Below, one piece after another: positions 14,787 through 36,802 of a stretch of 64,000 nucleotides of DNA; positions within the stretch are counted from its first letter, which is position 1; every line of letters begins with the position of its first letter. Made by a program: the position numbers and the translations under genes. Origin of the DNA: an uncultured Thermoleophilia bacterium (lineage in GTDB: Bacteria; Actinomycetota; Thermoleophilia; UBA2241); assembly GCA_963767505.1 (NCBI GenBank), contig CAVYDV010000004.1, forward strand, positions 1,623 through 65,622, in the 5' to 3' direction. The notes below the pieces were generated by a model. It was not told the origin of the DNA, did no database searches, and saw nothing but the letters and a program-made list of their open reading frames with translations.

Positions 14787-15209
14787 TCAGTCCGGTACGA
14801 CAAGGACCGGGACGTGCGAGTTCCTGACCACCTTGTCGGCGACGCTGCCGCCGAGGAGGCCTGTCACCCTGCCCACGCCGCGCGCGCCGATGACGACCAG
14901 GTCGGCGTTCTGTTCCTTCACGAACTCGATGATCCTCTTGGCGGGAGATCCGTAGCGGACGACGACCTCGGCGTCGACTCCGGCTTCGGTGGTGTACCGC
15001 GCCTCGGCTCTGCGGACGATGCTCTCCTCGTCCGGCAGTAGTGAGGGGTCCGGCTCACCGAAGGCGACGAGCTCGCTCCCGGCGGGGACCACGTTGAGGA
15101 CGAACAGATGGGCGCCCCATTTCTCCGCCATGTCCCTGGCTGCCTCGAAGGCCTTGTCGGCCTCGGCGGAGAAGTCCGTGCAGTATGCGATCCTATCGAT
15201 TTCCGGCAT
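14787..15209 (-). CDS. Universal stress protein UspA family
   Basis: The Usp domain is recognisable (IAYCTDFS...IGARGVGRVTGLLGGSVADKVVRNSHVPVLVVP). The start is at the internal Met. Confidence 0.85.
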   Translation of the reverse strand: MPEIDRIAYCTDFSAEADKAFEAARDMAEKWGAHLFVLNVVPAGSELVAFGEPDPSLLPDEESIVRRAEARYTTEAGVDAEVVVRYGSPAKRIIEFVKEQNADLVVIGARGVGRVTGLLGGSVADKVVRNSHVPVLVVPD

Positions 15210-15299
15210 GATGTCACCTTGTCGTGGACTTCGTCTCAAGCGAGACGGATTTCCACGTCCTTCTCACCTCTACTATGCCCATCAGGGCGCGTCGCCAAG

Positions 15300-15436
15300 C
15301 GCCTGCGGGGCGCCGAGAGCGAAGGGATGGCTGGGTCTCGCGAGACGACGGTGATCTCCTCTGACTGCCCGAGCTCGAGCTCGAAGGCCGCGTTGATGCC
15401 TGCGAAGCTGCCACCTAGAACGACGATGGACGTCAT
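15300..15436 (-). pseudogene. Duplicated 5' end of the SQR-like gene (first 35-45 codons only)
   Basis: MTSIVVLGGSFAGINAAFELELGQSEEITVVSRDP matches the N-terminus of the 30717-31919 product. About 70 bp of upstream leader is also duplicated (15437-15505 versus 31920-31995). Confidence 0.7.
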
Positions 15437-15770
15437 GGTCCACTCCTGCACAGACTGGTGCACCGTGCTCGTTCGCGGCTCGCTTCTTTCGCGGTCAGAT
15501 GCGCGACGAGAACGATGCACTCAGAGCAGCACGAGGGGCGCCTTGGTCTGTGCAGCGGCCGGGCGTACACTTCCCGTGGCCTGCTGCGCCGTCCACGCGT
15601 CTTCTGCGTCTGGGCAGCGGGGATGCGGTGGTCGAGCACATGCGACCTTGCTGGCGCAGTGGTCTGCTCGTGACGGCGTCGGCCTTGGGTGTCCGGGTTC
15701 CAGCCAAGGCGGACCCGCGACCCAGTGTCTCGAGGCGGCCCTGCCTTCGCGCGCTTGTAGAGAAACGGGG

Positions 15771-19234: not shown

Positions 19235-20500
19235 TGACCTGCACCCCTGAGATCGGTCCACCCGCAATGTAGGGTTTCGCGACCGATGAAGGAGGCAGAT
19301 CATGCCGAAGAAGACCTACCGACCCGAGGAGATCATCGCCAAGCTGCGTCAGGCCGAGGTGCTCATCGGCCAGGGCAGGAAGATGCCGGAGGTCGTCAAG
19401 GCCCTCGGCGTCCACGAGATCACCTACTACCGCTGGCGCAAGGAGTACGGCGGTCTCCAGGTCAGCCAGGCCAAGCGCCTCAAGGATCTCGAGCGCGAGA
19501 ACGCCCGACTGCGCAAGGCGGTCTCGGACCTCTCCCTTGACAAGGTCATCCTGCAGGAGGCGACGCGGGGAAACTTCTGAGCCCCTCGCGGCGACGCAGA
19601 TGCGTGCGCGCAGTCTGTGAGGGGCTCAACGTCTCCGAACGCCGTGCCTGCAAGGCTCTCGGTCAGCATCGCTCCAGCCAGCGTCAGCACCTGACGCTGC
19701 GCCCTGACGAGGACGCCCTCACGGCGGCCGTCGTCGGTCTGGCGCGCAGCTTCGGCCGCTACGGCTACAAGCGCATCACCGGCCTCCTGCAGATGGCCGG
19801 CTGGAACGTCAACCAGAAGCGGGTGCAGCGCATCTGGCGCTCCGAGGGCCTCAAGGTGCCAGCGAAGCAGCCGAAGCGAGGTCGCTTGTGGTTGAACGAC
19901 GGCTCCTGCATCCGTCTGCGGCCGGAACGCAAGAACCACGTCTGGGCCGTACGACTTCGTCGCCGAGAAGACCGACGACGGTCGCGCTCTGAAGCTGCTC
20001 ACGGTGATAGACGAGCACACGCGCGAGTGCCTGGCGATCGTCGTCGCCAGAAGGATCACGAGCCACGAGGTGCTGATGACGCTCTCCGACCTCTTCCTCC
20101 AGTACGGCGTCAAGGAGCACATCAGATCAGACAACGGGCCAGAGTTCGTGGCCAAGGCAGTGCGCGAGTGGCTCGCCGATCTCGGGGTCACGACCCTGTT
20201 CATCGAACCGGGCTCCCCTTGGGAGAACGGCTACATCGAGTCGTTCAACGGCAGGCTCAGAGACGAGCTCTTGAACGGCGAGATCCTCTCCACGCTCAAA
20301 GAGGCACAGATCCTGATCGCCGACTGGCGGCGCCTCTACAACGGCCTGCGTCCGCACAGCTCACTGGGCAACAGACCGCCGGCACCAGAGACGATCGCCT
20401 TCCCCGGCTTCTCGCTCTCTGACTTCGCGCCTCCGAAACCTCTGCCGGAGGTGGCCCAAGCACCAACATGGGAAGTGGACCGACGAATGGGGTCCGGTCA
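19235..20500 (+). mobile_element. IS3-family insertion sequence (about 1.27 kb)
   Basis: Left end TGACCTGCACCCCTGAGATCGGTCCAC and right end GTGGACCGACGAATGGGGTCCGGTCA form imperfect terminal inverted repeats (TG...CA). The interior has an OrfA/OrfB organisation. Confidence 0.8.
19302..19580 (+). CDS. IS3 OrfA (HTH transposase subunit)
   Basis: MPKKTYRPEEIIAKLRQAEVL...ITYYRWRKEYGG...LERENARLRKAV contains a helix-turn-helix plus a leucine zipper. Confidence 0.85.
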   Translation: MPKKTYRPEEIIAKLRQAEVLIGQGRKMPEVVKALGVHEITYYRWRKEYGGLQVSQAKRLKDLERENARLRKAVSDLSLDKVILQEATRGNF

Positions 20501-21495: not shown

Positions 21496-21509
21496 TGGGC
21501 ATATGCCCA
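21496..21509. promoter_or_regulatory. Perfect 14-bp palindrome TGGGCATATGCCCA
   Basis: It is a symmetric variant of the TGAGCATATGCTCA motif, located in the non-coding region between the SDR gene and the peroxiredoxin. A related half-site, CATATGCCCA, lies at 21761-21770. Confidence 0.35.
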
Positions 21510-22107: not shown

Positions 22108-22716
22108 GTGAGCAGCATCATGGTCGGCCGCAAGGCGCCGGACTTCGTCGCGCCCGCCTACCACAAGGGCGCCTTCACCCAGGTCAAGCTCTCCGACTAC
22201 CTGGGCAAGTGGGTCGTCCTGTGCTTCTACCCGGGCGATTTCACCTTCGTCTGACCGACCGAGATCTCGGCGGTCGCCGAGAAGTACGACGAGTTCCAGG
22301 CGCTGGGCGTCGAGGTGCTGTCGGCCAGCGTGGACTCGCAGTTCGTCCACAAGATGTGGGACGAGAACGAGCTCTCGAAGATGGTGGAGGGCGGCGTGCC
22401 GTTCCCGATGCTCGCCGACGCGGCGGGCCATCTGGGCACCGCCTACGGCGTCTACGACGACGAGGCCGGCGTAGACGTCCGTGGCCGCTTCATCATCGAC
22501 CCGGACGGCGTGATCCAGGCCATGGAGGTGCTCACGCCGCCCGTGGGCCGCAGGGTCGAGGAGTCGCTCCGGCAGATCCAGGCGTTCCAGCACGTGCGTA
22601 CCACGGGGGGCAAAGAGGTCACGCCCTCCGGCTGGGAGCCCGGCAAGAAGGTCCTCAAGCCCGGCCCCGACCTGGTGGGCCGCGTGTGGGAGGTCTGGCA
22701 GCCGGCGGATGCCTAG
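22108..22716 (+). CDS. prxU: Peroxiredoxin (AhpC/Prx1 type) with in-frame TGA at the peroxidatic-Cys codon; candidate selenoprotein
   Basis: An AAGGAG RBS lies 6 nt before GTG 22108. ORFs 22003-22254 and 22315-22716 share one frame. The junction reads [19 protein letters not shown], against the family motif FTFVCPTE. Confidence 0.7.
22253..22275 (+). promoter_or_regulatory. SECIS-like hairpin starting at the G of the UGA
   Basis: GACCG-A-CCGA [GAUC] UCGG-CGGUC forms 9 bp with one bulge and a 4-nt loop. Confidence 0.4.
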
Positions 22717-22919: not shown

Positions 22920-23198
22920 GACCGGGGGCTTCGACACCCCTGCGGTCCACCACCGAGTCGTGCTCTGCGCGCCCTTCGAACGGACCCCGACACGGCCCGG
23001 TGCGACCATTCTGCAGCCCAGATCCACGCGACTGGATAGGAGCGGGGGGGCGGAGGGGAGCGACTGGACCGCCCCACCAGCGCCGGAGACGATCGCCTGG
23101 CCGGGCTTTGCGCTCTCTGACTGCGGGCCTCCGAAAGCTATGACGGAGGCGGCTCTGGGACGAACATGCGAAGTGGACCGACGAATGGGGTCCGGTCA
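22920..23198 (+). repeat. Left arm of a 279-bp perfect inverted repeat (nested IS right-end remnants)
   Basis: It is the reverse complement of 32155-32433, and the encoded peptide strings are identical. It ends with the IS3-type terminus ...GTGGACCGACGAATGGGGTCCGGTCA. Confidence 0.85.
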
Positions 23199-23220
23199 CT
23201 CGGCGGCCGCGTCCCCTCAC

Positions 23221-23604
23221 TCAGTGCCGGCAGGCCCCCTCAAGCCCGACCACCGGCAGGTCTCCCCGCACGAAGGCTGTCGCAGCCGTCTGCACGTCCG
23301 GACCAGTCCCGGCGTGCACCGCGATGCCGACCTGGCCGAAGCCCATGAGCGGCCGGCCGCCGATGCCGTCGACGACGATGGCGTCGACCGTGTTCTCGGC
23401 CAGGAGAAGCACTGGCCGCATGCAGCCGCCCTCCTCATGTGGAGTGTTCTGCACGACCTCGACGCCGGCCACGTCGCCGTCGACGACCTCGACCACGGTG
23501 AAGCAGTCGCAGCGGCCGAAGTGCCCTGACCGTCGCGCCTCGAGACCGCCCGGAGCTTCCGAGGGGATTGCGATGCGCACCGTCGTTCCGTTGAGTTCAC
23601 TCAT
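23221..23604 (-). CDS. NifX/NifB-like (dinitrogenase FeMo-cofactor-binding domain) protein 1
   Basis: VRIAIPSE...SGHFGRCDCFTVVEV...DAIVVDGIGGRPLMGFGQVGIAV matches the family pattern. Confidence 0.8.
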   Translation of the reverse strand: MSELNGTTVRIAIPSEAPGGLEARRSGHFGRCDCFTVVEVVDGDVAGVEVVQNTPHEEGGCMRPVLLLAENTVDAIVVDGIGGRPLMGFGQVGIAVHAGTGPDVQTAATAFVRGDLPVVGLEGACRH

Positions 23605-23670
23605 GTGGATCAGACTCCGTTCCTGGTTGGTGGATCGATATCGTGGGGCCGACGGTCGCGGTGAAGGCCG

Positions 23671-24168
23671 TCAGGCGCTGGCGTGACCCGGACCGCGGCC
23701 GCGCTTCTGGCGACCGGCGCCGGCGCCCCGGCTTCCATGTCCCATCCCGCAGTGCCCTGCCGCATCCCAGCAGGTGCCCACCTCGGCAGAGCCGCAGGAT
23801 GGGCAGGCGGCCGGTGGCGGGTCATCTGGTGGGGCGCCCCAGAGGGAGCCGCAGGAGGCGCAGCAGAGCTGCCGCGGCTCGATACGGTACTGACCCCCAC
23901 CGATGAGGATCGCCTTGCCCGCTACGAGCGCCTCTGCGACCTTGGCTCTGCCCCGCTCGAGCACGCGGCCGACGGTCTGGCGCGAGATGCCCATGGCTTC
24001 GGCCGCCTGCTCGTGGCTCAGCCCGTCGAGGTCGACGAGGCGGATGGCCTCCAGCTCGTCGACCGTCAGCTGCAACTGCTCGAGCTCGCGGCCCGGCACG
24101 CCCGCCGGCTTGAACAGGGTCGCCCGCGGCACGCCGCCGACGGCGCGCTCAATCGGTGGGCGGGGCAT
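23671..24168 (-). CDS. DUF134 (UPF0251) putative DNA-binding protein with C-terminal Zn ribbon
   Basis: MPRPPIERAVGGVPRATLFKP...LTVDELEAIRLVDLDGLSHEQAAEAMGISRQTVGRVLERGRAKVA has a sigma-70 region-4-like HTH. The Zn ribbon is CASCG...CPSCG. An AGGAGA RBS is present. Confidence 0.85.
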   Translation of the reverse strand: MPRPPIERAVGGVPRATLFKPAGVPGRELEQLQLTVDELEAIRLVDLDGLSHEQAAEAMGISRQTVGRVLERGRAKVAEALVAGKAILIGGGQYRIEPRQLCCASCGSLWGAPPDDPPPAACPSCGSAEVGTCWDAAGHCGMGHGSRGAGAGRQKRGRGPGHASA

Positions 24169-24186
24169 GTCCGTCTCCTGTGGTTC

Positions 24187-24200
24187 CTAGCATATGCTCA
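24187..24200. promoter_or_regulatory. Operator-like site CTAGCATATGCTCA (12 of 14 match to TGAGCATATGCTCA)
   Basis: It lies about 20 nt upstream of the DUF134 start codon, between the RG-rich ORF and the DUF134 gene. Confidence 0.45.
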
Positions 24201-24224
24201 TCCTAGAGGGGGCGAGGTCCGGCT

Positions 24225-24650
24225 TCAACACGCCGGCTTCTCGCTGTCTACTGTGTGGTCGGCCGTGTCGTGCGACGCCGGGAGAGCCCGGGGTGCAGGC
24301 TGGGTCGCACCCACTTCGATCGTCCTTCTCTGCGCCGGCACCTCGCTTGGCGTCGGCGGATCCAGCCGCAGGTAGGCGCCGCCCAGGCGCCGGGCCGGTT
24401 CACGACGGCTCAGCGCCAGGCGCAGTGCGGTCCGGCGCAGCAGGGGCCGCGTCAGTCCCTCGGCATCGCGGATGTCCTGCACGACGTAGGCGCCGGCCGC
24501 GACCAGGGTCCGGGTCGCTGTGCGCCCGCCCAGGCCGCCCTCGCTGCTCCGGGCATTGCCCCAGCGACCGCTACGGCCTCGCCCGGTGCCCTTGCATGGT
24601 GGCCCTCCCCGTCGTTGTCGGCGGTACCCGGGCCTTCCGTCTGCGTGCAT
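24225..24650 (-). CDS. Hypothetical protein with Arg/Gly-rich N-terminus (141 aa)
   Basis: An AGGAGGAAGG RBS overlaps the end of the upstream gene. The N-terminus is MHADGRPGYRRQRRGGPPCKGTGRGRSGRWGN. No domain was recognised. Confidence 0.5.
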   Translation of the reverse strand: MHADGRPGYRRQRRGGPPCKGTGRGRSGRWGNARSSEGGLGGRTATRTLVAAGAYVVQDIRDAEGLTRPLLRRTALRLALSRREPARRLGGAYLRLDPPTPSEVPAQRRTIEVGATQPAPRALPASHDTADHTVDSEKPAC

Positions 24651-24667
24651 GGCTGCTTCCTTCCTCC

Positions 24668-25024
24668 TCATGTCCAGTGACCGCTGACGGTGGGTGCCTC
24701 GACCGCTTCGAGCTCGCCGCGCTCGAGAGCGGCCAGGGCGTCGTGCGCGGTCACTCCGTTGCTCGTCTGGTAGATGGCGATGTCCGCAGCGGCGAGCACC
24801 CGGTGCGCGTTCGGCCCGACATTGCCGGTGATGACCGCCCCGGCGCCGTGCGACGCCACGGCGTTGCCCGTCTGGATGCCGGCGCCGCCGCTGGCGACCG
24901 CGTTCTCGCGAGCCTGCCACTCGCCGGTCTCGGTGTCAGCGACGATGAACCAGCGGGCGCGGCCGAACCTGGGGTCGACCAGGGACCCGATATCGTTGCC
25001 CTGTGTACTGATGGCTACTCTCAT
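24668..25024 (-). CDS. NifX/NifB-like (FeMo-cofactor-binding domain) protein 2
   Basis: MRVAISTQGNDIGSLVDPRFGRARWFIVAD...AGAVITGNVGPNAHRVLAAADIAIY. The start overlaps the radical SAM stop (ATGA). Confidence 0.85.
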   Translation of the reverse strand: MRVAISTQGNDIGSLVDPRFGRARWFIVADTETGEWQARENAVASGGAGIQTGNAVASHGAGAVITGNVGPNAHRVLAAADIAIYQTSNGVTAHDALAALERGELEAVEAPTVSGHWT

Positions 25025-25986
25025 GGCTGCTCCTCTATTCGATGCTCGATGGCGGCGGGCGCCGCCAGGTAGAACGATTCGCCCTCGTGGGTGTGCAGCT
25101 CAACGACGCCTTGAGTCACCAAGGCAGTGGCCGCCTTGAGCGCCTCGCCGTGGTGAAGGCCCAAGCCAGCGGCGATGTCGGCTGTGGTGCACGGACGCCG
25201 CGAGAGCAGTGCCAGGATGTCGGCACTGTGGACGGCTCGGCTGCCAGCGGCGGGCAGGGTGTCGGCGATCACCTCGGCGTGCGGGGTGAAGAGACCGGCG
25301 AACTGCTGCAGAAGGCCCTCCGCGACTGGCGTCACGAACGACTCCGCCGGGGGGCGCACCGCCGTGTTCAGCTGGATCCGGTCGGGGGTGATGCGCGCTG
25401 CCAGCTCCGCGAGCCGCTGCACCTCGGACAGCAGCCCGGTGACGCCGGCGAGCAGCATGACCTCGAGCCAAAACTGCCCGGAGAAGTTCTGGCGGAAGGC
25501 GATCATGCCGTCGACCACCTCGTCGAAGCGCAGTGCTGCGTGAGGACGGTTGATGAGCTGGAACAGGCCGCCATCTGGGGCGTCGAGTGACGGCAACACG
25601 ATGTCGGCGGCCGCCAGTCCTCGGCGCACCGTCGGGTGGCTGAAGAGCGACCCGTTGGTGACCACCGCCACCGGCACGTCCGTGAGCCCCTTGATGCCGG
25701 CGATCACTTCGCCGATCCCCGCATGCAGGGTCGGTTCACCCGATCCGGCGAGAGCGATGGCGTCAGGCTCCGAATCGAGCTTGGCGCGCACCTGAGCGAC
25801 AACGTCTGGTGGGTCGACCCAACGCTGCCTGCGCACCGTCTTGCACGTAGTACGGCCGAGCTGGCAGTAGATGCAGTCGTAGGTGCACGTCTTGAGGGGC
25901 ACGAGGTCGACGCCGAGGGAGCGCCCCAGGCGACGGGAGGGCACCGGCCCGTAGACAAGCTGTTCTGTGCTGACGGCGAAGGGCAT
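25021..25986 (-). CDS. Radical SAM protein
   Basis: YGPVPSRRLGRSLGVDLVPLKTCTYDCIYCQLG carries the CxxxCxxC motif. GSGEPTL is also present. Confidence 0.85.
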   Translation of the reverse strand: MPFAVSTEQLVYGPVPSRRLGRSLGVDLVPLKTCTYDCIYCQLGRTTCKTVRRQRWVDPPDVVAQVRAKLDSEPDAIALAGSGEPTLHAGIGEVIAGIKGLTDVPVAVVTNGSLFSHPTVRRGLAAADIVLPSLDAPDGGLFQLINRPHAALRFDEVVDGMIAFRQNFSGQFWLEVMLLAGVTGLLSEVQRLAELAARITPDRIQLNTAVRPPAESFVTPVAEGLLQQFAGLFTPHAEVIADTLPAAGSRAVHSADILALLSRRPCTTADIAAGLGLHHGEALKAATALVTQGVVELHTHEGESFYLAAPAAIEHRIEEQP

Positions 25987-25989
25987 CCT

Positions 25990-26886
25990 CTACCCCGTCT
26001 GACTGTGAGCGGAGTGCTCGGTCGGTGTGAGCAGCGGCTCGATGGCGGCCGAGAACGCCGCGGTCGCCGGCGATCCAGAGAACGCCTGCACGAAAGGTAC
26101 GCCGCACTCTCCGGCCTGCACGACCGTCGGATCCATCGGGATGCGGCCGAGGAACGGCACCCCGGCAATTGTGGCCATGGTCTCTGCGCCGCCGCTCTGA
26201 AAGATGTCGGTGGTCTCGCCACAGTGTGGGCAGACGAAGCCGCTCATGTTCTCGATCACGCCCAGCACCGGGAGATCGCGCGTCCTGCAGAAGGCCAACG
26301 CCTTGCGCACGTCGCTGACCGCCACGCTCTGTGGGGTGGAGACGACTACGGCTCCCACTCCTGCGTCGAGCATCTCGACCAGCGCCAGTGCCTCGTCCCC
26401 AGTACCGGGAGGAGCGTCGACCACGAGGCAGTCGATGTGGCCCCAGTCGAGCCTGGCGAGCATGTCGCGGATCGCCGAGTACTTGCGCGGGCCGTGGCAC
26501 ATGACAACGGCGTCCTCCTCGGGCAGAAAGAACTGGATCGACATGGCCCACAGGATCTCGCTCGCCTTGGCTCGGGCAACGCCGCTGACGTGCCCCGGCC
26601 GAGGCGCATAGTCGATCCCCAGGAGACCCGGGACGCTGGGGCGGTAGAGGTCGACATCGAGCAGACCGACGCGCCTCCCGGCGTCCGCCAGCGCCGTGGC
26701 CAGGTTCAACGCCACGGTGCTCTTGCCCACTCCGTCCTTGCCCGACAGCAAGAGCAGCTTCTGGCGAACGCTCAGCAAGCGGAAATGTAGCTCGACCTGT
26801 CGTCGGCGGGGATCACCATCAACATGGGCGCGGCCCCCATCGTGCCCCTCGAGTCCTGCCTTGCGGGTCACGTGGCCTTCACGCAT
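25990..26886 (-). CDS. Mrp/NBP35 (ApbC-like) Fe-S cluster carrier ATPase
   Basis: Features: deviant Walker A SGKDGVGKST, VVDAPPGTGD, and GVIENMSGFVCPHCGE. The start is uncertain. Confidence 0.85.
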   Translation of the reverse strand: MREGHVTRKAGLEGHDGGRAHVDGDPRRRQVELHFRLLSVRQKLLLLSGKDGVGKSTVALNLATALADAGRRVGLLDVDLYRPSVPGLLGIDYAPRPGHVSGVARAKASEILWAMSIQFFLPEEDAVVMCHGPRKYSAIRDMLARLDWGHIDCLVVDAPPGTGDEALALVEMLDAGVGAVVVSTPQSVAVSDVRKALAFCRTRDLPVLGVIENMSGFVCPHCGETTDIFQSGGAETMATIAGVPFLGRIPMDPTVVQAGECGVPFVQAFSGSPATAAFSAAIEPLLTPTEHSAHSQTG

Positions 26887-27784
26887 TGAGCACCTCTCCT
26901 TGCGGGGACGGCGAGAGCGATGCGCCCACCGCTCCCCAGAGCTTCGTGATCTCCTCCGCGGCGCGCCCGCCGTGGGCGATGACGTCGGTGCCCGCTACTT
27001 GGGCATGTGTCACTGCGGGGTCGTACTCGACAGTGACGACGAACTCCGCTCCGGCGTCGGACGCCTCACCAGAGATGCGCGCGCCGAGCTCCCGGTTGAG
27101 ATCTGCCTTGTTGATGCAGACGGCGAACGGCAGCCGGAACTGCCGCACCACCTGCAGCACGCGGTCGAGGTCGTGGCGACCCGAGACCGTCGGTTCGGTG
27201 ACCACCAGCACCAGGTCGGCGCCGGCCAGCGAGGCGATCACGGGGCAGCCGATGCCCGGCGATCCGTCGACGATGACGAGCGGCAGTCCGCGCTCCTCGG
27301 CCACGCTGCGAGCCTCGTTGCGTACGAGGGTCACGAGCTTGCCGGAGTTGTCCTCGGCGACCCCGAGACGAGCGTGGACGAGCGGCCCGTAGCGCGTCTC
27401 GGATGTCATCCAGGCACCGTTGATGACGGGCTCCATGCGGATGGCGTCGGCGGGGCACACGTGCCGGCAGAGCTCGCAGCCCTCGCAGGCGAGGGCGTCG
27501 ATCGAGTAGTCGCCGTCGGCGCTCCGCACGGCCGCGAAGCGGCAGACCTCGGCGCAGCGGCCGCAGGCGGTGCAGGCCTCAGGGTCGATGATCGCCCTTC
27601 GGCGGCCGCTGAACTCATGTTCCTTCCCGAACTCGGGCCCCAGGACCAAGTGCAGGTCGGCGGCGTCGACGTCGCAGTCGGCGAGCACGGCGCCGCCCGC
27701 CAGCGCCGCGAAGGCGGCCACGATGCTCGTCTTCCCGGTGCCGCCCTTGCCGCTGATGACGACCAGCTCGCGCGGCGGGCTCAT
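26879..27784 (-). CDS. MinD/ParA-type P-loop ATPase with inserted 2x[4Fe-4S] ferredoxin domain (COG1149 type), copy B
   Basis: Features: SGKGGTGKTS, then CTACGRCAEVC and CEGCELCRHVCP inserts, then DGSPGIGCPV. Confidence 0.85.
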   Translation of the reverse strand: MSPPRELVVISGKGGTGKTSIVAAFAALAGGAVLADCDVDAADLHLVLGPEFGKEHEFSGRRRAIIDPEACTACGRCAEVCRFAAVRSADGDYSIDALACEGCELCRHVCPADAIRMEPVINGAWMTSETRYGPLVHARLGVAEDNSGKLVTLVRNEARSVAEERGLPLVIVDGSPGIGCPVIASLAGADLVLVVTEPTVSGRHDLDRVLQVVRQFRLPFAVCINKADLNRELGARISGEASDAGAEFVVTVEYDPAVTHAQVAGTDVIAHGGRAAEEITKLWGAVGASLSPSPQGEVLNA

Positions 27785-28665
27785 GAGGCCACCTCTGCCG
27801 CTCGGGCGGCTGATTCGATGCGCGTCCAGGCAGCGCTCAGCTTCTCTCCCAGACCCTCGACCGAGTCGAGTAGCAGATGGCCCTGGGCGTAGGTCTCGGC
27901 GATGCGTCGCTCGTAGGGCAGCTCGAGAACGATCTCGATGCCCTCGTCGGCGCAGTACGAGTACACTCGATCGTCTCCCAGACCGGCGCGGTTGACGACA
28001 ACGACGCAGCGCAGCCCGAGCGCGCGCACCATCTCTACCGCAAGCTCGAGGTCGTGCAGACCGAAAGGCGTCGGCTCGGTGACCAGGACTACCAGGTCAG
28101 AGTCGCGTACCGCTGCGATCACGGGGCAGGAGGTGCCCGGTGGCGCGTCGATCAGTACGACGTCGACGCTGTCGTCGTCGGCAGCTGCCAAGGTGGCCCT
28201 GGTCGTGGGTACGGCCTTGGCTTCGCCGACTGCGAGCACCCCGCTCACGAGCGGGAAGACAGGCTGGCGCGGGGGAGTCGCCATGCCGTGCTCGACCACC
28301 CCGGTCTCACGCTCTTCCTCATGGATCGCGTTCTGCGGACACAGCAGCGCGCACGCTCCACAGGAGTGGCAGAGCTCCGGGAACACGAGGACCGTGGAGC
28401 CGACGACGGCGATGGCGTTGAAAGCGCAGACCTCGCCGCACGCCCCGCAGCCGTTGCAGCGCGCCTCGTCCACCTCGGGCACCAGGACGCGCACTGGCTC
28501 GCGGTGTTCGATCTCGGGATGCAGGAAGAGGTGACAATCCGGCTCCTCGACATCGGCGTCGAGGAGCTGCACGGCCAAGCCGCGCGCGGAAAGCAGCGCC
28601 GCGAGGTTGGTGGCGAGCATCGTCTTCCCGGTGCCGCCCTTGCCGCTGGCGATGGCGATGCGCAT
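27781..28665 (-). CDS. MinD/ParA-type P-loop ATPase with inserted 2x[4Fe-4S] ferredoxin domain (COG1149 type), copy A
   Basis: Features: SGKGGTGKTM, CNGCGACGEVC, CHSCGACALLCP, DAPPGTSCPV. There is a 4-nt overlap with the next gene. Confidence 0.85.
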   Translation of the reverse strand: MRIAIASGKGGTGKTMLATNLAALLSARGLAVQLLDADVEEPDCHLFLHPEIEHREPVRVLVPEVDEARCNGCGACGEVCAFNAIAVVGSTVLVFPELCHSCGACALLCPQNAIHEEERETGVVEHGMATPPRQPVFPLVSGVLAVGEAKAVPTTRATLAAADDDSVDVVLIDAPPGTSCPVIAAVRDSDLVVLVTEPTPFGLHDLELAVEMVRALGLRCVVVVNRAGLGDDRVYSYCADEGIEIVLELPYERRIAETYAQGHLLLDSVEGLGEKLSAAWTRIESAARAAEVAS

Positions 28666-28669
28666 GGCC

Positions 28670-29059
28670 TCAGACCTCCAGCTCGAGCACGCCGTTGGGG
28701 CAGGCGCTCAGGCAGGCACCGCAACCGTTGCACAGCGTGGCGTCCACCACCACCTCCGCCGCGAGCAGGCTCAGCGCGCCACGAGGGCAGGCGTCGAGGC
28801 AGGCTCCGCACAGGGTGCACTGATCCGCATGAGCCACGACGGCTATGGGTCGCGCTCGTGCAACTGGAGCCGGAGCCCCGGAGGGCACGTCCGCGCGTGG
28901 GGCCGGCACGGCGACAGCGGCAGCCATCTGCGCTGCGAGGCCGGTCCCGCCGCAGGCCTCAGGAGCCGCGCCGCGCCCCGAACCGTCACGGCGGCGCTGC
29001 CGGACGCCGTGTCTCTGGCCGCGACCGGTGCCCCGACCTCTGTCTCTGGCGCGCCTCAC
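28670..29059 (-). CDS. 2x[4Fe-4S] ferredoxin with possible Arg/Gly-rich N-terminal extension
   Basis: CTLCGACLDACP and CNGCGACLSACP motifs are present. GTG 29059 overlaps the upstream stop (GTGA) and would add RRARDRGRGTGRGQRHG... to the N-terminus. The alternative start is ATG 28927. Confidence 0.75.
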   Translation of the reverse strand: MRRARDRGRGTGRGQRHGVRQRRRDGSGRGAAPEACGGTGLAAQMAAAVAVPAPRADVPSGAPAPVARARPIAVVAHADQCTLCGACLDACPRGALSLLAAEVVVDATLCNGCGACLSACPNGVLELEV

Positions 29060-29376
29060 TTCTGCCCCGCCTCGAGCCGGTCGAGGCGCTCAACGATCTC
29101 CCCCAGCCTGCTCTCCAAGCTCGCGAACGGGTCCGGCCAAGCGCATGCCAGCGCCGACGAGTCGGCCTGCTCGGCACGCTGCCAGCCGGTGAGTCCGGTG
29201 GCGTAGAACTGGTTGCGGCGACCGCGGCCGCCGCCGCCCCGGCCACGACCCATTCCGGCGCCCCTCCCAGCGTTTGCTCCGAAGCCGACATCTGCCGTGG
29301 CACCGGCACACGAGCCGCGCCGGCCACCTGTCATAGGGCCGTAGCCCATCGGTCCTGAACCGTCCATTCCTGGCAT
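29056..29376 (-). CDS. DUF5320 family protein
   Basis: MPGMDGSGPMGYGPMTGGRRGSCAG...GRGRGGGGRGRRNQFYATGLTGW... is followed by a C-terminal coiled coil (LESRLGEIVERLDRLE). An AAAGGAGAG RBS is present. The ORF-track start at 29433 lies inside the operator palindrome. Confidence 0.8.
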   Translation of the reverse strand: MPGMDGSGPMGYGPMTGGRRGSCAGATADVGFGANAGRGAGMGRGRGGGGRGRRNQFYATGLTGWQRAEQADSSALACAWPDPFASLESRLGEIVERLDRLEAGQK

Positions 29377-29426
29377 GATCTCTCCTTTGTCGCCGTCCGG
29401 CGCTCGGCTTGCCGGAGCGTGTGTAA

Positions 29427-29447
29427 TGAGCATATGCTCATATTATA
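29427..29447 (-). promoter_or_regulatory. Perfect palindrome TGAGCATATGCTCA (16 bp as ATGAGCATATGCTCAT) abutting a TATAAT -10 box
   Basis: The palindrome is at 29427-29440. On the minus strand, TATAAT (29442-29447) lies immediately upstream of it, about 50 nt before the DUF5320 start. Confidence 0.55.
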
Positions 29448-29978
29448 CCCGTGACCTGAGATAGCAAGCGCCTCCCACTGGACGAGAATCAGCGAATCAC
29501 GGAGGGTTCTTGCTGAGAGCCGATCCGAGGATGGGACCGACTACGACGACGGACAGGGCTAGGAGGCCACGGGTGATGTTGGCGCCGACGACTGAGTCGA
29601 CTACGTGAAGGCCCGGACGATTGATGTCACGCTCGCAGCCTCAGGCGCAACGGCGACCAGCGCCGAGCGTTTCACAGGCTCACGACCTCTGCTGCGCTTC
29701 AGCGGGGTCGAATCGATGAGCAGTAGGCCGCCGCGCGAGCCCGGGCTCTGCCGAGCGAAGCGGCCCAGGAGCCACTCGACGGTGTCCGCCAGACGCCGGC
29801 GACGCCTGTGGAGCCGGCTTGGCCCGGGAGTTGCGGGAATGGGTGTCAGAGCCGCTGATGCGCGGCGCCAGGAACCCGCGGTACCACTACAAGCTGCTTC
29901 CAGCGGCACCAAGCGTGGACGACGGGGCCACCGGCCTGCGCGCTCGTCCGCGGTCACGGACCTGAGGCGCTCGCTCGT

Positions 29979-30497
29979 CTACCGCGCCTCTGGCCGTCGC
30001 TCGCCGCGTTGCAGGAACGTCTCGCTGCTCACCAGGTCCGTCCATCCGCCACGTGTGCCGACTCGAAGATCGAAGGCCTCGACGTAGGGCTTGATGTCGA
30101 GCAGCGGCGTGCCGTCGAGCACATCGAGGTCCTCGACAAGCAGATCGGCACCGCGGCGTTCGACCAGACGCACGATGCTGAGGCCGAGCGGGTTGGGGCG
30201 CACCGGCGTGCGCGTGGCGAAGATGCCCCTGGGCGCGTCGTCAAGAAACGGCACCACCCTGAGCGGCGACGGACCGGCGACGGACTTCACGATGTCGGCG
30301 GCACGGTGGAGCCAGTAGATGAGGTGCAGATGCGAGAAGCCCTCCACGTCGTCCAGCCCCTCGGCGAACTCGGAGAAGACCTCAACCCGGCCTTGGCTGC
30401 CCTCGGCGCAGACCGGCTGGATGGGTGTCTGCCCTGGTTCGCGATGCTCGCTGTGAATGATGCCGATCGGCTCCAGCGTGAGCCTCTCCACGTCCAC
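29979..30497 (-). CDS. trmO: TsaA/YaeB-like tRNA methyltransferase (TrmO family)
   Basis: LEPIGIIHS...FSHLHLIYWLH...RGIFATRTPVRPNPLGLSIVRL...LDGTPLLDIKPY matches the family. The start may be the second GTG, at 30491. Confidence 0.8.
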   Translation of the reverse strand: MDVERLTLEPIGIIHSEHREPGQTPIQPVCAEGSQGRVEVFSEFAEGLDDVEGFSHLHLIYWLHRAADIVKSVAGPSPLRVVPFLDDAPRGIFATRTPVRPNPLGLSIVRLVERRGADLLVEDLDVLDGTPLLDIKPYVEAFDLRVGTRGGWTDLVSSETFLQRGERRPEAR

Positions 30498-30716
30498 CTC
30501 CGATGTCGTGCAGGGACAGGTCGCACTGCGGCGGGGTCGCGGTGAACCGCCTGCGCGGCCAGCCGCGCGTTGTCCTGGGTCCGCGCCGTCTCCTCACTGG
30601 CGGGGCACTTGACCCCGCCAAGCCAGCGCAGTGGTCGTGTTTCTGGTCGCACGGGGGTCTGAGGTGGTGTCCTTTCCCTTCGACGCACGGGCGACCACAG
30701 GGACCACTCCGCACCC

Positions 30717-31919
30717 TCAGGGCAGGTACACCAGCCCGTGCTTGATCCTCAGCATGTAGTACTTCTCGAAGGCGAGCTTGGCCCAGTGCGACCAGGGACC
30801 GGGGATCATGATCTCGTAGCGGCGTGGCTTGAAGACGCGATCGAGCACGATGATCATGCCCTGGTTGCCGGCGTCCATGATGCACAGCGGCTTGATGTCG
30901 GCGAAAGGCATCGGGCGCGGTTCACTGCCTTGGATCGCCGCCACGATGTTGTGTGCCGCGACCTTGCCCATGACCTCCGACATCCAACCTGTCTTGGGCA
31001 CCCCGGTGGGCACCTCCGTCGGTATCTGCGGCTTGATCTGGACGGCGATACCGGCGGCGTAGATGTTGTCGAAGTCGCGGTGCTTGTAGCAGTCGTCGGT
31101 GGGGATGAAGCCCTTCTCGTCCCCCAGGCCGGGCGAGTCGAAGATGGCCTGGACGCCGGTGAACGGAGGGATGACGATGGCGTACTTGTGGTTCAGCACG
31201 CGTCCGTCGGAGAGCGTGATGGAGCCCTTGCTGGCCGAGGTCATGCCGACATTGGCGAAGGGCTTGATGCCGAGCATCCTGAAATAGGCCTTGAGCATCG
31301 GCTCCCCGCCGCGCATGCCGCCGAGACCGAAGTGGCCGAGGAACGGCTCCGAGGTCACGAAGGCCAGCGGCGCCTGCTTGCGGATCTTCGCCTCACGCAG
31401 TGCCTTGTCGATGTTGAAGACCACCTCGTAGGCTGCGCCGAAGCAGCTGGCGCCCTGGGCCGAGCCGATGACGACCGGCCCCGGGTCTTGGACGAACTCA
31501 AGCCAGGCTTCGGCGGAGTCCATCGCGTGTTTGAGGCTGCAGACGGAGTGCGAGGTGCCCTCCTCGGGGCCGAGGCCCGGGACGACGGAGAAGTTGTACT
31601 TGGCCCCCGTCCCAATCAGCAGGTAGTCGTAGGGGACCTCACCCTTGTCGGTGAACACCTTGTTCTGCTCGGCGTCGATATACTCGACGGTCGCATGCTT
31701 GAACTTGATGCCCCGCCGGTAGAGGATCGGCTCGAGCTCCATGCTGACCTGCCCGGGCTTGCGCCACCCGGGGACCATCCAGATCAGCGAGGGCACGAAG
31801 ATGAAGCGGGGGTCTCGCGCGACGACGGTGATCTCCGCAGCACTCCCCAGCTCGAGCTCGAGCTCGAAGGCCGCGTTGATGCCGGCGAAGCTGCCACCCA
31901 GAACGACGATGGACGTCAT
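30717..31919 (-). CDS. sqr: Sulfide:quinone oxidoreductase-like FAD-dependent oxidoreductase
   Basis: The FAD fold begins MTSIVVLGGSFAGINAA. SQR-type Cys contexts GASCFGAAYE and PLCIMDAGNQG are present. The product is 400 aa. Confidence 0.75.
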   Translation of the reverse strand: MTSIVVLGGSFAGINAAFELELELGSAAEITVVARDPRFIFVPSLIWMVPGWRKPGQVSMELEPILYRRGIKFKHATVEYIDAEQNKVFTDKGEVPYDYLLIGTGAKYNFSVVPGLGPEEGTSHSVCSLKHAMDSAEAWLEFVQDPGPVVIGSAQGASCFGAAYEVVFNIDKALREAKIRKQAPLAFVTSEPFLGHFGLGGMRGGEPMLKAYFRMLGIKPFANVGMTSASKGSITLSDGRVLNHKYAIVIPPFTGVQAIFDSPGLGDEKGFIPTDDCYKHRDFDNIYAAGIAVQIKPQIPTEVPTGVPKTGWMSEVMGKVAAHNIVAAIQGSEPRPMPFADIKPLCIMDAGNQGMIIVLDRVFKPRRYEIMIPGPWSHWAKLAFEKYYMLRIKHGLVYLP

Positions 31920-32078
31920 GGGTCCACTCCTCCACAGACTAGTGCGCCGAGGTCAGTCGTGGCTCGCCTCTTCCGCGGTCAGACGCCCGACGCCAGCCAT
32001 GCATCCAGATCAACCAGCCCAGCGCCCTGGAGCCTTTGCGGCCGTGCCAGTTCTCACCTATGGGAAGATGTAGCATAC

Positions 32079-32092
32079 TGAGCATATGCTCA
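32079..32092. promoter_or_regulatory. Perfect palindrome TGAGCATATGCTCA upstream of the SQR-like gene
   Basis: It lies 160 nt upstream of the start at 31919. An extra half-site, TAGCATAC, is directly adjacent (32071-32078). Confidence 0.5.
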
Positions 32093-32126
32093 CGATACCA
32101 CACCTGCCCCGTACGTCCCGAACGGC

Positions 32127-33706
32127 TCACACGCGAGAAGAAGCCGGACCCCACTGACCGGACCCCATTCGTCGGTCCACTTCGCATGTTCGTCCCAGAG
32201 CCGCCTCCGTCATAGCTTTCGGAGGCCCGCAGTCAGAGAGCGCAAAGCCCGGCCAGGCGATCGTCTCCGGCGCTGGTGGGGCGGTCCAGTCGCTCCCCTC
32301 CGCCCCCCCGCTCCTATCCAGTCGCGTGGATCTGGGCTGCAGAATGGTCGCACCGGGCCGTGTCGGGGTCCGTTCGAAGGGCGCGCAGAGCACGACTCGG
32401 TGGTGGACCGCAGGGGTGTCGAAGCCCCCGGTCGGGTGTGGCTCCAAGCAGTGCACAGCGAGCGGCCGACGCTGTTCGAAGGTCTGATGCGGCCTAATCT
32501 CGCTGTAGAGCGAGAGGTAGGCTGCGACCTCCTCGGCGAGGTCGGCGGCGGTCTCGATCTCGCGCTGGTAGAGGTGCTCGTACTCGAGCGAGCGGTTGAA
32601 GCGCTCGACCACGCCGTTGGTCTCGGGAGCGTAGTGGCGGGTGATGTGGCGATAGTCGAAGCCCTCGAGGCTGATGCGCCCGCCCTCACGCACCCGCCGC
32701 GTGACCACCTCACCCTCGGCGGGGTGCTGCTCGCCGCTGGCCTTGGCCTCGACCGCTTCGGCTTCAGGCTGCCGTGCCACCGGCTGCTGCCCTCTCGCCG
32801 CCAGCTCGAAGCGCTTGATCGGGGCCACCATGCCGATGCCCTGATGGGGCCGCTCGCAGTTGTAGTGGGCCACCCAGGCGTCGAGCTCGGCTTGGGCGGC
32901 CTCTAGCGAGGCGAAGGTACGACCTTCGAGGAACTCACTCCGCAGCGTCTTGTGGAAGCGCTCGACCTTGCCGGTCGTGGTCGGGCTGTAGGGGGCGGTG
33001 AGCAGATGACGGACGCCGTGCTCTTGGCAGATGCGGTCGAAGAGCACCTCGCGGCGGTGGGCCCCGAAGCGCCCCGTGAAGACCTTGCCGTTGTCGGTGA
33101 GGATCTGCTCGGGGACGCCGTGACGTTGCATGGCTGCACGCAGCGCCTCGCAGACCGGTCGCGTGGTGGCGCGCTCGACGAGCTGGGCCGAGACGCAGAA
33201 GCGCGAGTGGTCGTCGATGCCGGAGACGAGCTTGAGCTCGGATTCGTCTGAGAGCTTGACGCCGCCCATCACGTCCATCTGCCAGAGCTCCATGGCCTTG
33301 AGGCGCTCCCAGCGGCGGTAGTCCTCGCGCTTGCGACGGCGCTTCTGGGGATCGATGAGGCGATGGCGCACCAGGCAGCGATAGATCGAGGAGCGCGAGG
33401 GTTGGCGCTCGAGCTCCTCCCGCGCCAGGTAGTGGGCGATCGTGCGCGGCCCCCAGCGCGGGTGGGCGAGGCGCATCTCGACGATGCGCGCCTCGACCGC
33501 CGGCGGCATGCGGTGCGGGCAGCGCCCGGTCGCGAAGAGGCGTCGGCCAGACCGGCGATGCCGCTACGCGCGTAGCGTCGCAGCCAGCGGTGCAGCGTCT
33601 GGCGGGTGACCCCGTAGCGGCCGGCCACCGCGACCACGCTGTTGCCCGCGAGGACCTCGAGGACTGCCTTGTGGCGCTGTTCCACGACTCCCAGCTCGAT
33701 GAGCAT
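32127..33706 (-). pseudogene. IS481-family transposase, frameshifted and chimeric
   Basis: The N-terminal HTH (MLIELGVVEQRHKAVLEVL...TRQTLHRWLRRY, ORF 33269-33706) is in a different frame from the catalytic part (MPPAVEARIVEMRLAHPRWGPRTI...DNGKVF...TTGKVERFH, ORF 32127-33509). Confidence 0.7.
32155..32433 (-). repeat. Right arm of the 279-bp perfect inverted repeat
   Basis: It is the reverse complement of 22920-23198. Confidence 0.85.
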
Positions 33707-33895
33707 GACGTGAGCCTCCCCGTCGAACGACCGTTGCTGGTCGTCTCTTCGAGGAGAGTGGCGCCTGTACGCTGGCCTGACTGTCGCACAGCTACCGAAA
33801 CCACCGTCGCCCAGGAGCCGAAGCCACTGTAGCCTGGCGACTGAAGCCGCGTCTCGGAACTGTCACGCAGCTGCCGGAGCCACTCTGTCAAGGAT
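32434..33895 (-). mobile_element. IS481-like element, 3' part replaced by a fragment of another rve-type transposase
   Basis: An HTH ORF and a DDE/rve ORF are present. Beyond about 32650 the reading frame switches to the C-terminal block of a different transposase (PETNGVVERFNRSLEYEHLY...IRPHQTF). The outer end is inferred from the identity of 33793-33890 to nt 1-95. Confidence 0.6.
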
Positions 33896-34072
33896 GTAGG
33901 AGTGCAAACGGATGTGGCGACCCCGTTGCCGCCTATCTGCCGACGAGACGCCTCCCCACGGCCCAACATACGACAGCACAGGCCAGCACGGCACCTCGCC
34001 AGAACGCTGGACCGTGCAGCACAATGGCGCATGGGCCACCACAGCCCGCCACGCCTTCCTGACGTTTCCTAG

Positions 34073-34107
34073 ACCTGGTGTCGCTGGTTCGATTCCAACC
34101 GGGGGCG
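34073..34107 (+). other. tRNA 3'-portion-like relic, copy 3 (degenerate T stem)
   Basis: ACCTG-GTGTC-GCTGG-TTCGATT-CCAAC-CGGGGGC-G, with one T-stem mismatch and no CCA. It is embedded in block 33890-34230, which is paralogous to 95-420. Confidence 0.45.
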
Positions 34108-34385
34108 CCGAGCACTGCCGAATGGGGCGATTTCCTGAGCCGTTCTCGGCGGCCGTACTCCCTGAGTTGCCGTCAAGCGCGAGCATTCTGAGGATGGGAC
34201 GCGCCACGGCAGAGCTCGGCTGAACACATGCCGGCCCAGGCGACTCCTTCGGCCGAGCGAGTCGGCCTACGCCCACCGGTCACGAGCCCGAATCAGCAAG
34301 CCACAGCGGGGATGCCGGAACCCTGGTCGCCCGCCGGAGCCACCACCGGCGCTCTTGCGCGATCGACCGAAGCGACCGACACGGA

Positions 34386-36192: not shown

Positions 36193-36208
36193 CTTCGCCT
36201 CGCGGCTT

Positions 36209-36454
36209 CTATCTGATGTCGACGTGCGCGCCCGAGCAGTAGGGCGGACTTGTTGTCAGTCCGCAGCTGCAGACGACTGTCGTGATTGGCTCAGTGATCT
36301 CGAATTCCAGTGGCTCGACACCGCTACCGATGTGCGACGCGTCGCAGTATGGGACCGTCTTCGTCTTGCCGCACCGGCACCAGTAATAGGTGCCGACACC
36401 GAACTGAACCACGGCGGGGTGGCTCTTGGTCTCGTCGTGCTCGAACCTGGTCAT
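36209..36454 (-). CDS. CDGSH iron-sulfur domain protein (81 aa), paralog B
   Basis: CRCGKTKTVPYCDASH and CSCGLTTSPPYCSGAH motifs are present. About 100 bp of upstream leader is also homologous to that of paralog A. Confidence 0.85.
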   Translation of the reverse strand: MTRFEHDETKSHPAVVQFGVGTYYWCRCGKTKTVPYCDASHIGSGVEPLEFEITEPITTVVCSCGLTTSPPYCSGAHVDIR

Positions 36455-36802
36455 TTGTCTCCTCTTCTCGCCATCGCGACCGCCCGTCTCGCTTCACATT
36501 CCCGGCGCTCGCTCCTTCCTACCCCGGTCGGCTCCAGTGAATGCCCCACTGAGCGGCAGCCCGCGAGGGCTGCAGCCCGTTCCTGCATGGGGGAATCGCC
36601 CACGAGCAGGTGCCAAACGCCGCCGATCAGGCGGCTGAGCCCCGATGAGGGTGGTCAAGGGAGTCACCTGAGAGGCGTCTACAAGATTGTATACGGCAAC
36701 CAGCAGTTGGGCTTGCGGAAACGGCTGCAGAGCCTTCCGCGGATAGGGTCGGCGCGCTAGCATTGAGCGTAGTGGCCTTCCGACCGAGGGAGGGGAAGGT
36801 AC

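Follow-up and report, generated by a model that had tools for sequence, protein, structure and literature searches.

Gene content and identity of the locus

A block of twelve genes, all intact and all carried on the minus strand, lies between two inverted copies of a 279-bp sequence (the arms) in the 64-kb stretch of DNA from an uncultured Thermoleophilia bacterium that was analysed here (the window). Using Pfam and NCBIfam profile searches, families could be assigned to all of the products with the exception of an Arg/Gly (RG)-rich protein (Table 1), and this cargo was identified as an intact orange protein (ORP) cluster, a metal-sulfur gene cluster of anaerobes. One of the two NifX-like proteins matches the orange protein of Desulfovibrio gigas over its full length. 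The same protein matches the C-terminal domain of the MrpORP model (positions 265-357), and MrpORP appears to be split in this operon into a P-loop gene and a separate orange protein gene, with the gene for a radical S-adenosylmethionine (SAM) enzyme located between them. Two P-loop ATPases, which share 32 % identity with each other, were assigned to the Orp3/Orp4 type by their domain architecture (CbiA/ParA and Fer4). The operon is colinear in three related genomes (L001, L002 and L003), with whose orthologues the gene lengths agree, and in thirteen further Thermoleophilia loci. Its genes are tightly packed, with start/stop overlaps of 4 or 8 nt at four junctions (29056/29059, 27781/27784, 26879/26886 and 25021/25024). 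The TrmO-like and SQR-like genes are located upstream of this operon.

The ORP complex occurs widely among anaerobic bacteria and archaea and its biochemistry has been studied since 2011; its physiological role is still called unclear, with a possible tie to cell division, and it is expressed at low redox potential only (PMC8359166). Co-purification of Orp3, Orp4 and Orp8 is described for D. vulgaris, in which MrpORP passes [4Fe-4S] clusters to Orp3 and Orp4 (PMC6345978). The cargo is a variant of this known system and shares with it the unclear physiological role of the complex. No AAA+/sigma-54 activator of the OrpR type was found with Pfam in the cluster or its near flanks, and sigma-54/OrpR control may be a peculiarity of Desulfovibrio and not a defining trait of ORP clusters. 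An earlier reading of this DNA (hereafter the original prediction) had described the cargo genes as intact, uniformly oriented and overlapping by 4 to 8 nt, had annotated them largely as in Table 1, and had stated that such a gene set co-occurs in anaerobes; all of this was borne out, with the conserved set retaining its synteny across the Thermoleophilia loci. Its statement that no biochemical function has been assigned to the set overlooks the Desulfovibrio ORP/MrpORP work (PMC6345978, PMC8359166) and stands only as far as the physiological role is concerned.

The true start of the DUF5320 gene is probably ATG 29376, since residue 20 is the first to be covered by the Pfam match and the operator described below includes the annotated ATG. 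Similarly, an alignment of seventeen homologues of the RG-rich protein, with the core ...TATRALVAVGAYVAQDLRDAEGLTRPLLRRAALRLA..., places the probable start of its gene at 24650. This protein would be specific to the Thermoleophilia lineage; a relationship with DUF5320 was considered and rejected, as none could be detected. The redox cysteines of the SQR-like protein occur in the contexts GASCFGAAYE (C159) and PLCIMDAG (C347), as read from the translation. This protein scores 102 bits against the NCBIfam type III SQR model, below the cut-off of 525, and its best NCBIfam matches, both weak, are the selenoprotein type III SQR and the 'Nterm_to_SelD' family. Among the loci compared, the SQR-like gene adjoins the operon in the window and L001 only. 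The 545-nt gap between the TrmO-like and DUF5320 genes is not conserved, except for a promoter of about 60 nt, and a transposase-like open reading frame (ORF) considered in this gap was rejected, being without Pfam support. The TrmO-like gene of L001 is a short 3' remnant (6186-6328), and the radical SAM gene of this locus is called as a shortened product of 271 aa, while several genes of L002 are split; this may reflect either frameshift errors in the L001 and L002 assemblies or genuine decay.

Table 1. Features of the ORP locus and its borders, with positions in the window
Feature	Position	Strand	Remarks
SQR-like flavoprotein disulfide oxidoreductase	30717..31919	-	Pfam Pyr_redox_2; redox cysteines C159, C347
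TrmO/TsaA-like protein	29979..30497	-	Pfam TrmO_N 2.9e-37; TIGR00104 120.8 bits, above cut-off
DUF5320 protein with RG-rich region	29056..29433	-	Pfam DUF5320 1.3e-15, match from residue 20
2x[4Fe-4S] ferredoxin with RG-rich N-terminal tail	28670..29059	-	Pfam Fer4 families
Orp3/Orp4-type P-loop ATPase A, inserted 2x[4Fe-4S] domain	27781..28665	-	Pfam ParA/CbiA + Fer4
Orp3/Orp4-type P-loop ATPase B, inserted 2x[4Fe-4S] domain	26879..27784	-	Pfam CbiA + Fer4
Mrp/NBP35 Fe-S carrier, CPHC motif	25990..26886	-	Pfam PF10609 2e-77; NCBIfam MrpORP 291 bits
Radical SAM enzyme, single CX3CX2C, C-terminal winged-helix-like domain	25021..25986	-	Pfam Radical_SAM
Orange protein (Orp8) homologue, NifX-like, 118 aa	24668..25024	-	Pfam Nitro_FeMo-Co; PDB 2WFB E = 1.1e-16
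RG-rich protein	24225..24671	-	no Pfam/NCBIfam match; conserved core in 17 Thermoleophilia loci
DUF134 helix-turn-helix protein, Cys-rich C-terminus	23671..24168	-	Pfam DUF134 1.1e-24 + Sigma70_r4_2
NifX-like protein 1, HFGRCDCF Cys motif	23221..23604	-	Pfam Nitro_FeMo-Co 4.1e-16; PDB PH0822, MTH1175
Promoter-operator palindrome GAGCATATGCTC	32080..32091		161 nt upstream of SQR start codon; conserved there in L001
ORP operon promoter-operator, TATAAT then ATGAGCATATGCTCAT	29428..29439		upstream of DUF5320; conserved position in 10 Thermoleophilia loci
Operator TAGCATATGCTC, one mismatch	24188..24199		20 nt upstream of DUF134; conserved in 14 loci
Fourth site, core GCATATGC (TGGGCATATGCCCA)	21499..21506		between SDR (short-chain dehydrogenase) and selenocysteine peroxiredoxin genes, outside left arm
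Selenocysteine 2-Cys peroxiredoxin, FTFV-U-PTE	22120..22716	+	in-frame TGA 22252-22254 at peroxidatic Cys position
Left arm, IS3-derived stub	22920..23198	+	exact reverse complement of 32155-32433
Left arm, non-IS3 part	22920-23073		degenerate left inverted repeat boxes
Left arm, right-end remnant with right inverted repeat	23074-23198		terminus at 23198
Right arm, identical stub, inverted orientation	32155..32433	-	adjoins IS481-like transposase debris
Truncated IS481-like transposase fragment (C-terminal 70 aa)	32434-32650	-	abuts right arm
Second IS481-like transposase, frameshifted and truncated	about 32650-33706	-	fused to fragment 32434-32650

A shared operator and the predicted regulon

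By alignment with related loci (L001, L002, L003, L005-L009 and L011-L017), an operator was detected, the consensus of which, GTATAAT-ATGRGCATATGCTCAT, comprises a -10-like hexamer followed by a 16-bp palindrome. Three matches to the operator are present in the window (0.16 expected), and the core GCATATGC occurs four times in the 64 kb (0.42 expected), with all four sites falling between 21.5 and 32.1 kb. The operator is found upstream of the organism's own DUF134 gene in all relatives checked, and the motif furthermore precedes the relocated ATPase pair of L015 as well as, in L002 and L003, nitroreductase and PNPOx-like genes. A scan with the sigma-70 consensus, which demands a -35 box, found no promoter. 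An Rfam scan of 21.5-33 kb found nothing, and a riboswitch is therefore not predicted there.

Such a distribution is the hallmark of a regulon under repressor control. The obvious candidate regulator is DUF134, because it combines a helix-turn-helix domain with a Cys-rich tail and has a site before its own gene, and it is likely to be an autoregulated repressor, which may sense the redox or metal state via this tail. As the operator is common to the SQR-like gene, the operon and DUF134, and a core site occurs outside the left arm, the functional unit would be the regulon, which does not coincide with the bracket formed by the arms. The SQR-like gene is thus predicted to be tied to the operon by the shared operator and not by this bracket.

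Radical SAM and TrmO-like genes across phyla

Alignment searches with the radical SAM protein, limited to one genome per species, returned 80 loci, which derive from anaerobic Thermoleophilia (the nearest, 79 %), Syntrophales, Smithella, Planctomycetota, Anaerolineales, Desulfovibrio/Bilophila and a euryarchaeal metagenome-assembled genome (MAG). Neighbours were counted over those 40 loci that extend 6 kb or more to either side. In 22/40, which belong to several phyla and include an archaeon, two or more ORP-type genes fall inside a distance of 6 kb from the radical SAM gene. A DUF5320 gene is found near it in 14/40 and a TrmO-like gene in 9/40 (18/84 when all radical SAM loci are counted). 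For example, L025 encodes DUF5320, orange protein, TrmO, two ATPases, Mrp, radical SAM and peroxiredoxin proteins on one strand, in the archaeal locus L049 the ORP genes are followed by radical SAM and then TrmO genes, and the gut Desulfovibrio locus L058 (7583-10351) encodes DUF134, radical SAM and Mrp. The placement of this radical SAM family between DUF134 and Mrp genes is seen in gut Desulfovibrio and Bilophila MAGs (L058 and L064), and the enzyme is therefore tied to the organism family in which ORP was defined.

The radical SAM and TrmO-like genes would thus be recurrent members of the ORP neighbourhood rather than local additions, with the SQR-like gene as the only predicted lineage-specific extra. 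The original prediction regarded all three as extensions of the module, which holds for the SQR-like gene and not for the two that recur across phyla; the conservation of gene neighbourhoods, which it had named as a check, was found for the radical SAM enzyme, and the core of the RG-rich protein is conserved in seventeen Thermoleophilia loci. The cysteines of the radical SAM enzyme comprise C34/C38/C41 and two isolated residues, and its AlphaFold2 model (pLDDT 72) consists of a generic core and a C-terminal winged helix. No sequence match was found in the PDB, and the fold search returned no specific relative. Likewise, there was no NCBIfam match to the NifB family model, and the ligands of the NifB auxiliary clusters are absent.

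A selenocysteine peroxiredoxin beside the left arm

The left arm sits between the operon and a gene for a selenocysteine (Sec) peroxiredoxin. Six orthologues of the latter, with 72-75 % identity and TGA at the same codon (L025, L047, L067, L069, L070 and L072), are encoded 0.2-10 kb from radical SAM/TrmO/ORP genes in Syntrophales, Smithella or deltaproteobacterial loci. A 9-bp hairpin directly follows the UGA, with an energy that is not distinguishable from that of shuffled sequences. The Sec-peroxiredoxin may belong to the same functional neighbourhood as the ORP operon, a link which is suggestive rather than established, since the adjacency is absent in the nearest Thermoleophilia relatives. 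The proximity of a candidate selenoprotein gene, raised in the original prediction, has thus gained some support from the six loci and keeps its suggestive standing.

Structure of the arms and related insertion sequences

The arms are exact reverse complements over 279 nt, an identity that extends no further on either side in a self-comparison of the window, and no third copy of the repeat occurs in the 64 kb. Their inner 19 nt, TGACCGGACCCCATTCGTC (three matches in the window, 0 expected), are also the right terminus (20482-20500) of an insertion sequence (IS) of the IS3 family at 19235-20500 (+). This 1,266-bp ISMex5-like element, the sole full-length IS3 in the window, incorporates the terminal repeats TGACC...GGTCA, an orfA and an orfB with an rve domain, of which the orfB is frameshifted, with a further break of the frame near 19890. 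At least eleven metagenome copies, retrieved via its terminal 26-mer, align with this element over its whole length at 80-87 % identity. Relatives at this level of identity are common in the JGI metagenomes (49 metagenome stretches with IS copies), and plasmid relatives of the element carry IS3 family annotations, among them 'IS3-like element ISMex5 family'.

When the arms are compared with the 1,266-bp IS3 copies, only the terminal 125-131 nt align (76-84 %), and this stretch encodes the OrfB tail (...PPAPETIAWPGFALSDCGPP...) and carries the right inverted repeat (IRR). The outer 154 nt of the arm had no match in the window or in 133 fetched loci, and a 25-mer taken from it had none in the JGI metagenomes. 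Two boxes of the left inverted repeat (IRL), ACCCCTG and GGTCCACC, sit 16 nt inside the outer edge, at a spacing of 1 nt as against 5 in the IS. The terminal 8 nt of the IS left end are replaced by 16 in the outer end of the arm, which starts with GACCGG, as IS termini do. The outer edge of the right arm falls within 2 nt of the point where the homology of the transposase fragment to the metagenome locus L109 stops. True sequence junctions occur at both outer edges, so that each arm forms a discrete unit of 279 bp. The arms are not whole insertion sequences, each representing a 279-bp stub that is IS3-like only over its terminal 125 nt, and each can most simply be explained as an internally deleted derivative of an ISMex5-like IS3; no short derivative of the IS was found among the 49 metagenome IS ends. 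The exact inverted repeat and the IS3-type right termini were recognised correctly in the original prediction, where the description of the bracket as IS ends applies to the termini and not to the arms as wholes, which are not IS copies.

IS-derived sequences are also found elsewhere in the window. The nested debris at 32434-33706 (-) comprises two fused IS481-like transposase remnants. The fragment that adjoins the right arm is also found in L109, a locus of an unrelated metagenome, where it abuts a right-end remnant (about 110 nt) of the same IS3, which lies in the opposite orientation to that of the window and beside an IS256-type gene. All four flanks were searched for the lacking 3' end of the IS481-like gene, from which an empty site could be rebuilt, and gave alignments at shuffle level. 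Dispersed repeats with 77-82 % identity (1-352 and 33802-34151; 519-855 and 36201-36532; 216-380 and 2150-2315) and another IS3 right-end fragment (2006-2050, 87 %) are present, and IS-related sequence is therefore scattered over the whole window. Two tandem arrays, at 52243-53744 (period 310 nt, 4.8 copies, 89 % matches) and 54967-55860 (304 nt, 2.9 copies, 95 %), lie within or beside the long ORFs 50532-52916 (+) and 54047-55351 (-), which probably encode repeat-domain proteins. A stub of a second SQR-like gene occurs at 15317-15528 (-), immediately before the gene for a universal stress protein (14787-15263) and upstream of it. It retains 45 N-terminal codons (76 % aa identity) and about 90 nt of the upstream region, and is 84 % identical to 31810-32012.

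Function of the cluster and origin of the bracket

The following mechanism is proposed for the ORP regulon. Transcription would start at the palindrome ATGAGCATATGCTCAT promoters before the SQR-like gene, the operon and DUF134, with a further site near the Sec-peroxiredoxin gene, and DUF134 would shut the regulon off. Mrp may load [4Fe-4S] clusters onto the ATPase pair, as with the Desulfovibrio proteins. A metal-sulfide cluster, which the NifX-like/orange proteins would carry non-covalently, could be assembled, modified or repaired by the ATPases, reduced by the ferredoxin, together with the radical SAM enzyme. This anionic cluster may be held by the cationic RG segments, in a manner comparable to the cationic tail of IssA (cited in PMC6345978), while the SQR and peroxiredoxin could supply or detoxify sulfide and peroxide around the oxygen-sensitive machine.

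The nearest relative, L001, encodes the same block, colinear with the window from 31949 to 23220 (8.7 kb), with a nucleotide identity of 94.5 % for the SQR-like gene and 90.7 % for the operon, and contains no IS end at all. The comparison with related genomes envisaged in the original prediction thus recovers the block and not its arms. In the more distant relatives L002 and L003 the operon adjoins suf genes, and no flank genes are shared between the window and any of these three loci. An acetyltransferase gene beside the L001 block was considered as a marker of the ancestral flank and rejected; it is not orthologous to that in L002/L003, and the ancestral site is therefore not assignable. The reading that we consider reasonably probable combines three elements, namely that the cargo is a chromosomally inherited ORP-type operon of an uncultured anaerobic Thermoleophilia bacterium, that it handles clusters by the mechanism proposed above, and that the arms are debris of rearrangement. 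The arms most likely mark the breakpoints of an IS-driven rearrangement in an IS-littered region, and would represent neither a working transposon nor a switch.

Several observations weigh against this reading. The Mrp protein covers positions 3-257 of the 365 positions of the MrpORP model (NF041136) and scores below the cut-off of 450 bits, because the domains are split over two genes. The fold of the radical SAM enzyme resembles those of PFL activase, viperin, TYW1 and NifB about equally (TM about 0.45), and the chemistry proposed for this enzyme, the RG tails and DUF134 is deduced from domain content and gene neighbourhood. The true outer junctions and IRL-like boxes of the arms are accommodated more readily by a discrete, mobile mini-element than by random remnants, and a single transposition would economically explain why both flanks differ from those of L001.

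A broader proposal is that ORP belongs to a wider system that includes the radical SAM enzyme, the TrmO/TsaA-like SAM-binding protein and DUF5320, joined in some lineages by the Sec-peroxiredoxin and SQR. The radical SAM enzyme would make or repair the special metal-sulfide cluster of the orange protein, while DUF134 would be the long-sought regulator outside the Desulfovibrionaceae, a ATGAGCATATGCTCAT-binding repressor that couples the system to redox or sulfide stress. Taken jointly, these suggestions are tentative and, on balance, doubtful.

Mobility of the segment was central to the original prediction, in which it was seen as a mobilisable, composite-transposon-like or invertible cassette. 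In the first of these forms, 22920-32433 would be a composite transposon whose arms are inverted, non-autonomous IS3 derivatives resembling miniature inverted-repeat transposable elements (MITEs), with an ISMex5-like transposase acting in trans on the two outer IRL-like ends. The identity of the arms points to a recent event, and both outer edges are novel junctions, with the homology to L001 ending about 20-100 nt from the arms on both sides and both flanks differing from those of L001. Related full-length IS copies are available in the window and in the 49 metagenome stretches, although the one in the window has the frameshifted OrfB. A genuine IRR is present in each arm and, toward the opposite end, the two IRL boxes with a GACCGG terminus, but this outer end is degenerate in box spacing and terminal length, the 154-nt part is without another copy in the sequences searched, and no short derivative accompanies the IS ends. 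Furthermore, the genuine IS termini point toward the cargo, and the arms contain no transposase gene; a composite transposon would have two complete insertion sequences or competent outer ends, whereas only degenerate IRL boxes are found on the outside here. The unit is bordered by ...GCCGT on the left and GGGTG... on the right, and no direct repeat of 2-5 bp, as expected of a target-site duplication, is present at either arm or around the whole unit in any pairing, including those that would result after inversion. There was no match to the cargo among 72,556 plasmids, and no IS-bracketed copy or junction among 84 radical SAM loci. We thus regard the composite transposon as unlikely. Because the arms are stubs with inward-facing termini, without target-site duplication or an IS-bracketed copy elsewhere, and the L001 block is free of IS, the 'mobilisable cassette' is unproven; both mobility and programmed inversion of the segment are unproven and unlikely.

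With regard to function, the module could traffic selenium or reactive sulfur rather than metal clusters, with the SQR, Sec-peroxiredoxin and NifX-like carriers handling persulfide or selenide. The SQR-like genes would be co-regulated through the shared operator, the two weak NCBIfam matches of the SQR-like protein have a selenium connotation, and the Sec-peroxiredoxin is a recurrent neighbour. However, no SelD, SelA/B, YedE/F or sulfurtransferase gene occurs in the cargo or its annotated flanks, the adjacency of the SQR-like gene is restricted to two loci, and all of the core proteins belong to Fe-S or cofactor-carrier families with direct precedent in the ORP complex (PMC6345978), which makes this explanation distinctly improbable.

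It is very improbable that the inverted repeat is an assembly artefact, such as a repeat misjoined during metagenome assembly. The window does apparently derive from a MAG, and the region is rich in IS fragments and frameshifted genes, but the cargo is intact and colinear over the 8.7 kb with the independent assembly of L001, and both arm-cargo junctions are clean and intergenic, leaving the SQR promoter and the stop codon of the NifX-like gene intact. The 279-bp repeat is also much shorter than typical long reads.

Least probable, to an extreme degree, is a programmed invertible element that acts as a phase-variation-type switch via the 279-bp repeats: the perfect inverted repeat could support RecA-dependent inversion and its identity could reflect ongoing exchange, so that flipping is physically possible, but it would have no obvious effect and would switch nothing, because the promoters and operators of the SQR-like gene, operon and DUF134 all lie inside the segment and move along with the genes, leaving expression unchanged, while transposase fragments only, and no invertase or recombinase gene, are adjacent and such repeats are absent from L001, L002 and L003.

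On the preferred reading of an inherited ORP operon bordered by rearrangement debris, the bracket is of little weight in itself, and documents the reshuffling of a chromosome by IS debris with the operon left unbroken. Leads on the role of ORP are instead provided by the radical SAM and TrmO-like proteins that accompany the ORP genes across phyla, the split MrpORP, the conserved promoter-operator, which is also found before the SQR-like gene and those of other flavoproteins, and the recurrent Sec-peroxiredoxin neighbour.

Comparison with known systems

The arrangement of identical, inverted IS-derived copies around a cargo is shared with the composite transposons Tn10 and Tn5 and with MITE-flanked composites. 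It differs from these in that the copies are 279-bp stubs without a transposase, with the IS termini facing the cargo and outer ends that are merely IRL-like, and in that there are no target-site duplications and no second occurrence. With ISMex5-like IS3 elements, the arms share the terminal 125 nt, including the 19-nt IRR, but they keep this right-end remnant only, while the other 154 nt match nothing found.

Among the systems that handle metal-sulfur clusters, the thioferrate storage protein IssA of Pyrococcus furiosus (as cited in PMC6345978) likewise associates NifX-family proteins with cationic Arg/Gly-rich segments; in IssA a NifX-like domain carries the cationic tail, whereas here the cationic segments occur on separate proteins (DUF5320, the ferredoxin and the RG-rich protein). 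The maturation of the nitrogenase cofactor by NifB, a NifX-like carrier and a NifH-type ATPase has in common with the present operon the P-loop Fe-S ATPases and NifX-family carriers, and the 4-nt overlap of the radical SAM and NifX-like genes echoes the domain order of NifB. However, the radical SAM enzyme has the canonical motif only, its match to the NifB fold is generic (TM about 0.44), and no nitrogenase genes are present.

The features shared with the ORP gene cluster and complex of D. vulgaris Hildenborough (orp3-orp4-orp5, orp7-orp8-orp9 and MrpORP) are a pair of P-loop ATPase paralogues that each contain a 2x[4Fe-4S] insert, an Mrp/NBP35 carrier with CXXC, an orange protein homologue, a second NifX-like protein, a restriction to anaerobes, and clustered, co-transcribed genes (PMC6345978, PMC8359166). 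The two divergent sigma-54 operons of Desulfovibrio are represented here by a single ten-gene operon, and the OrpR enhancer-binding regulator is replaced by the palindromic operator and DUF134. While the Desulfovibrio MrpORP is a fusion of the P-loop domain with a C-terminal NifX-like domain, its counterpart here is split around the radical SAM gene. Finally, the Thermoleophilia cluster adds the ferredoxin, DUF5320 and the RG-rich protein, as well as its TrmO-like and SQR-like neighbours, to the complement found in Desulfovibrio.

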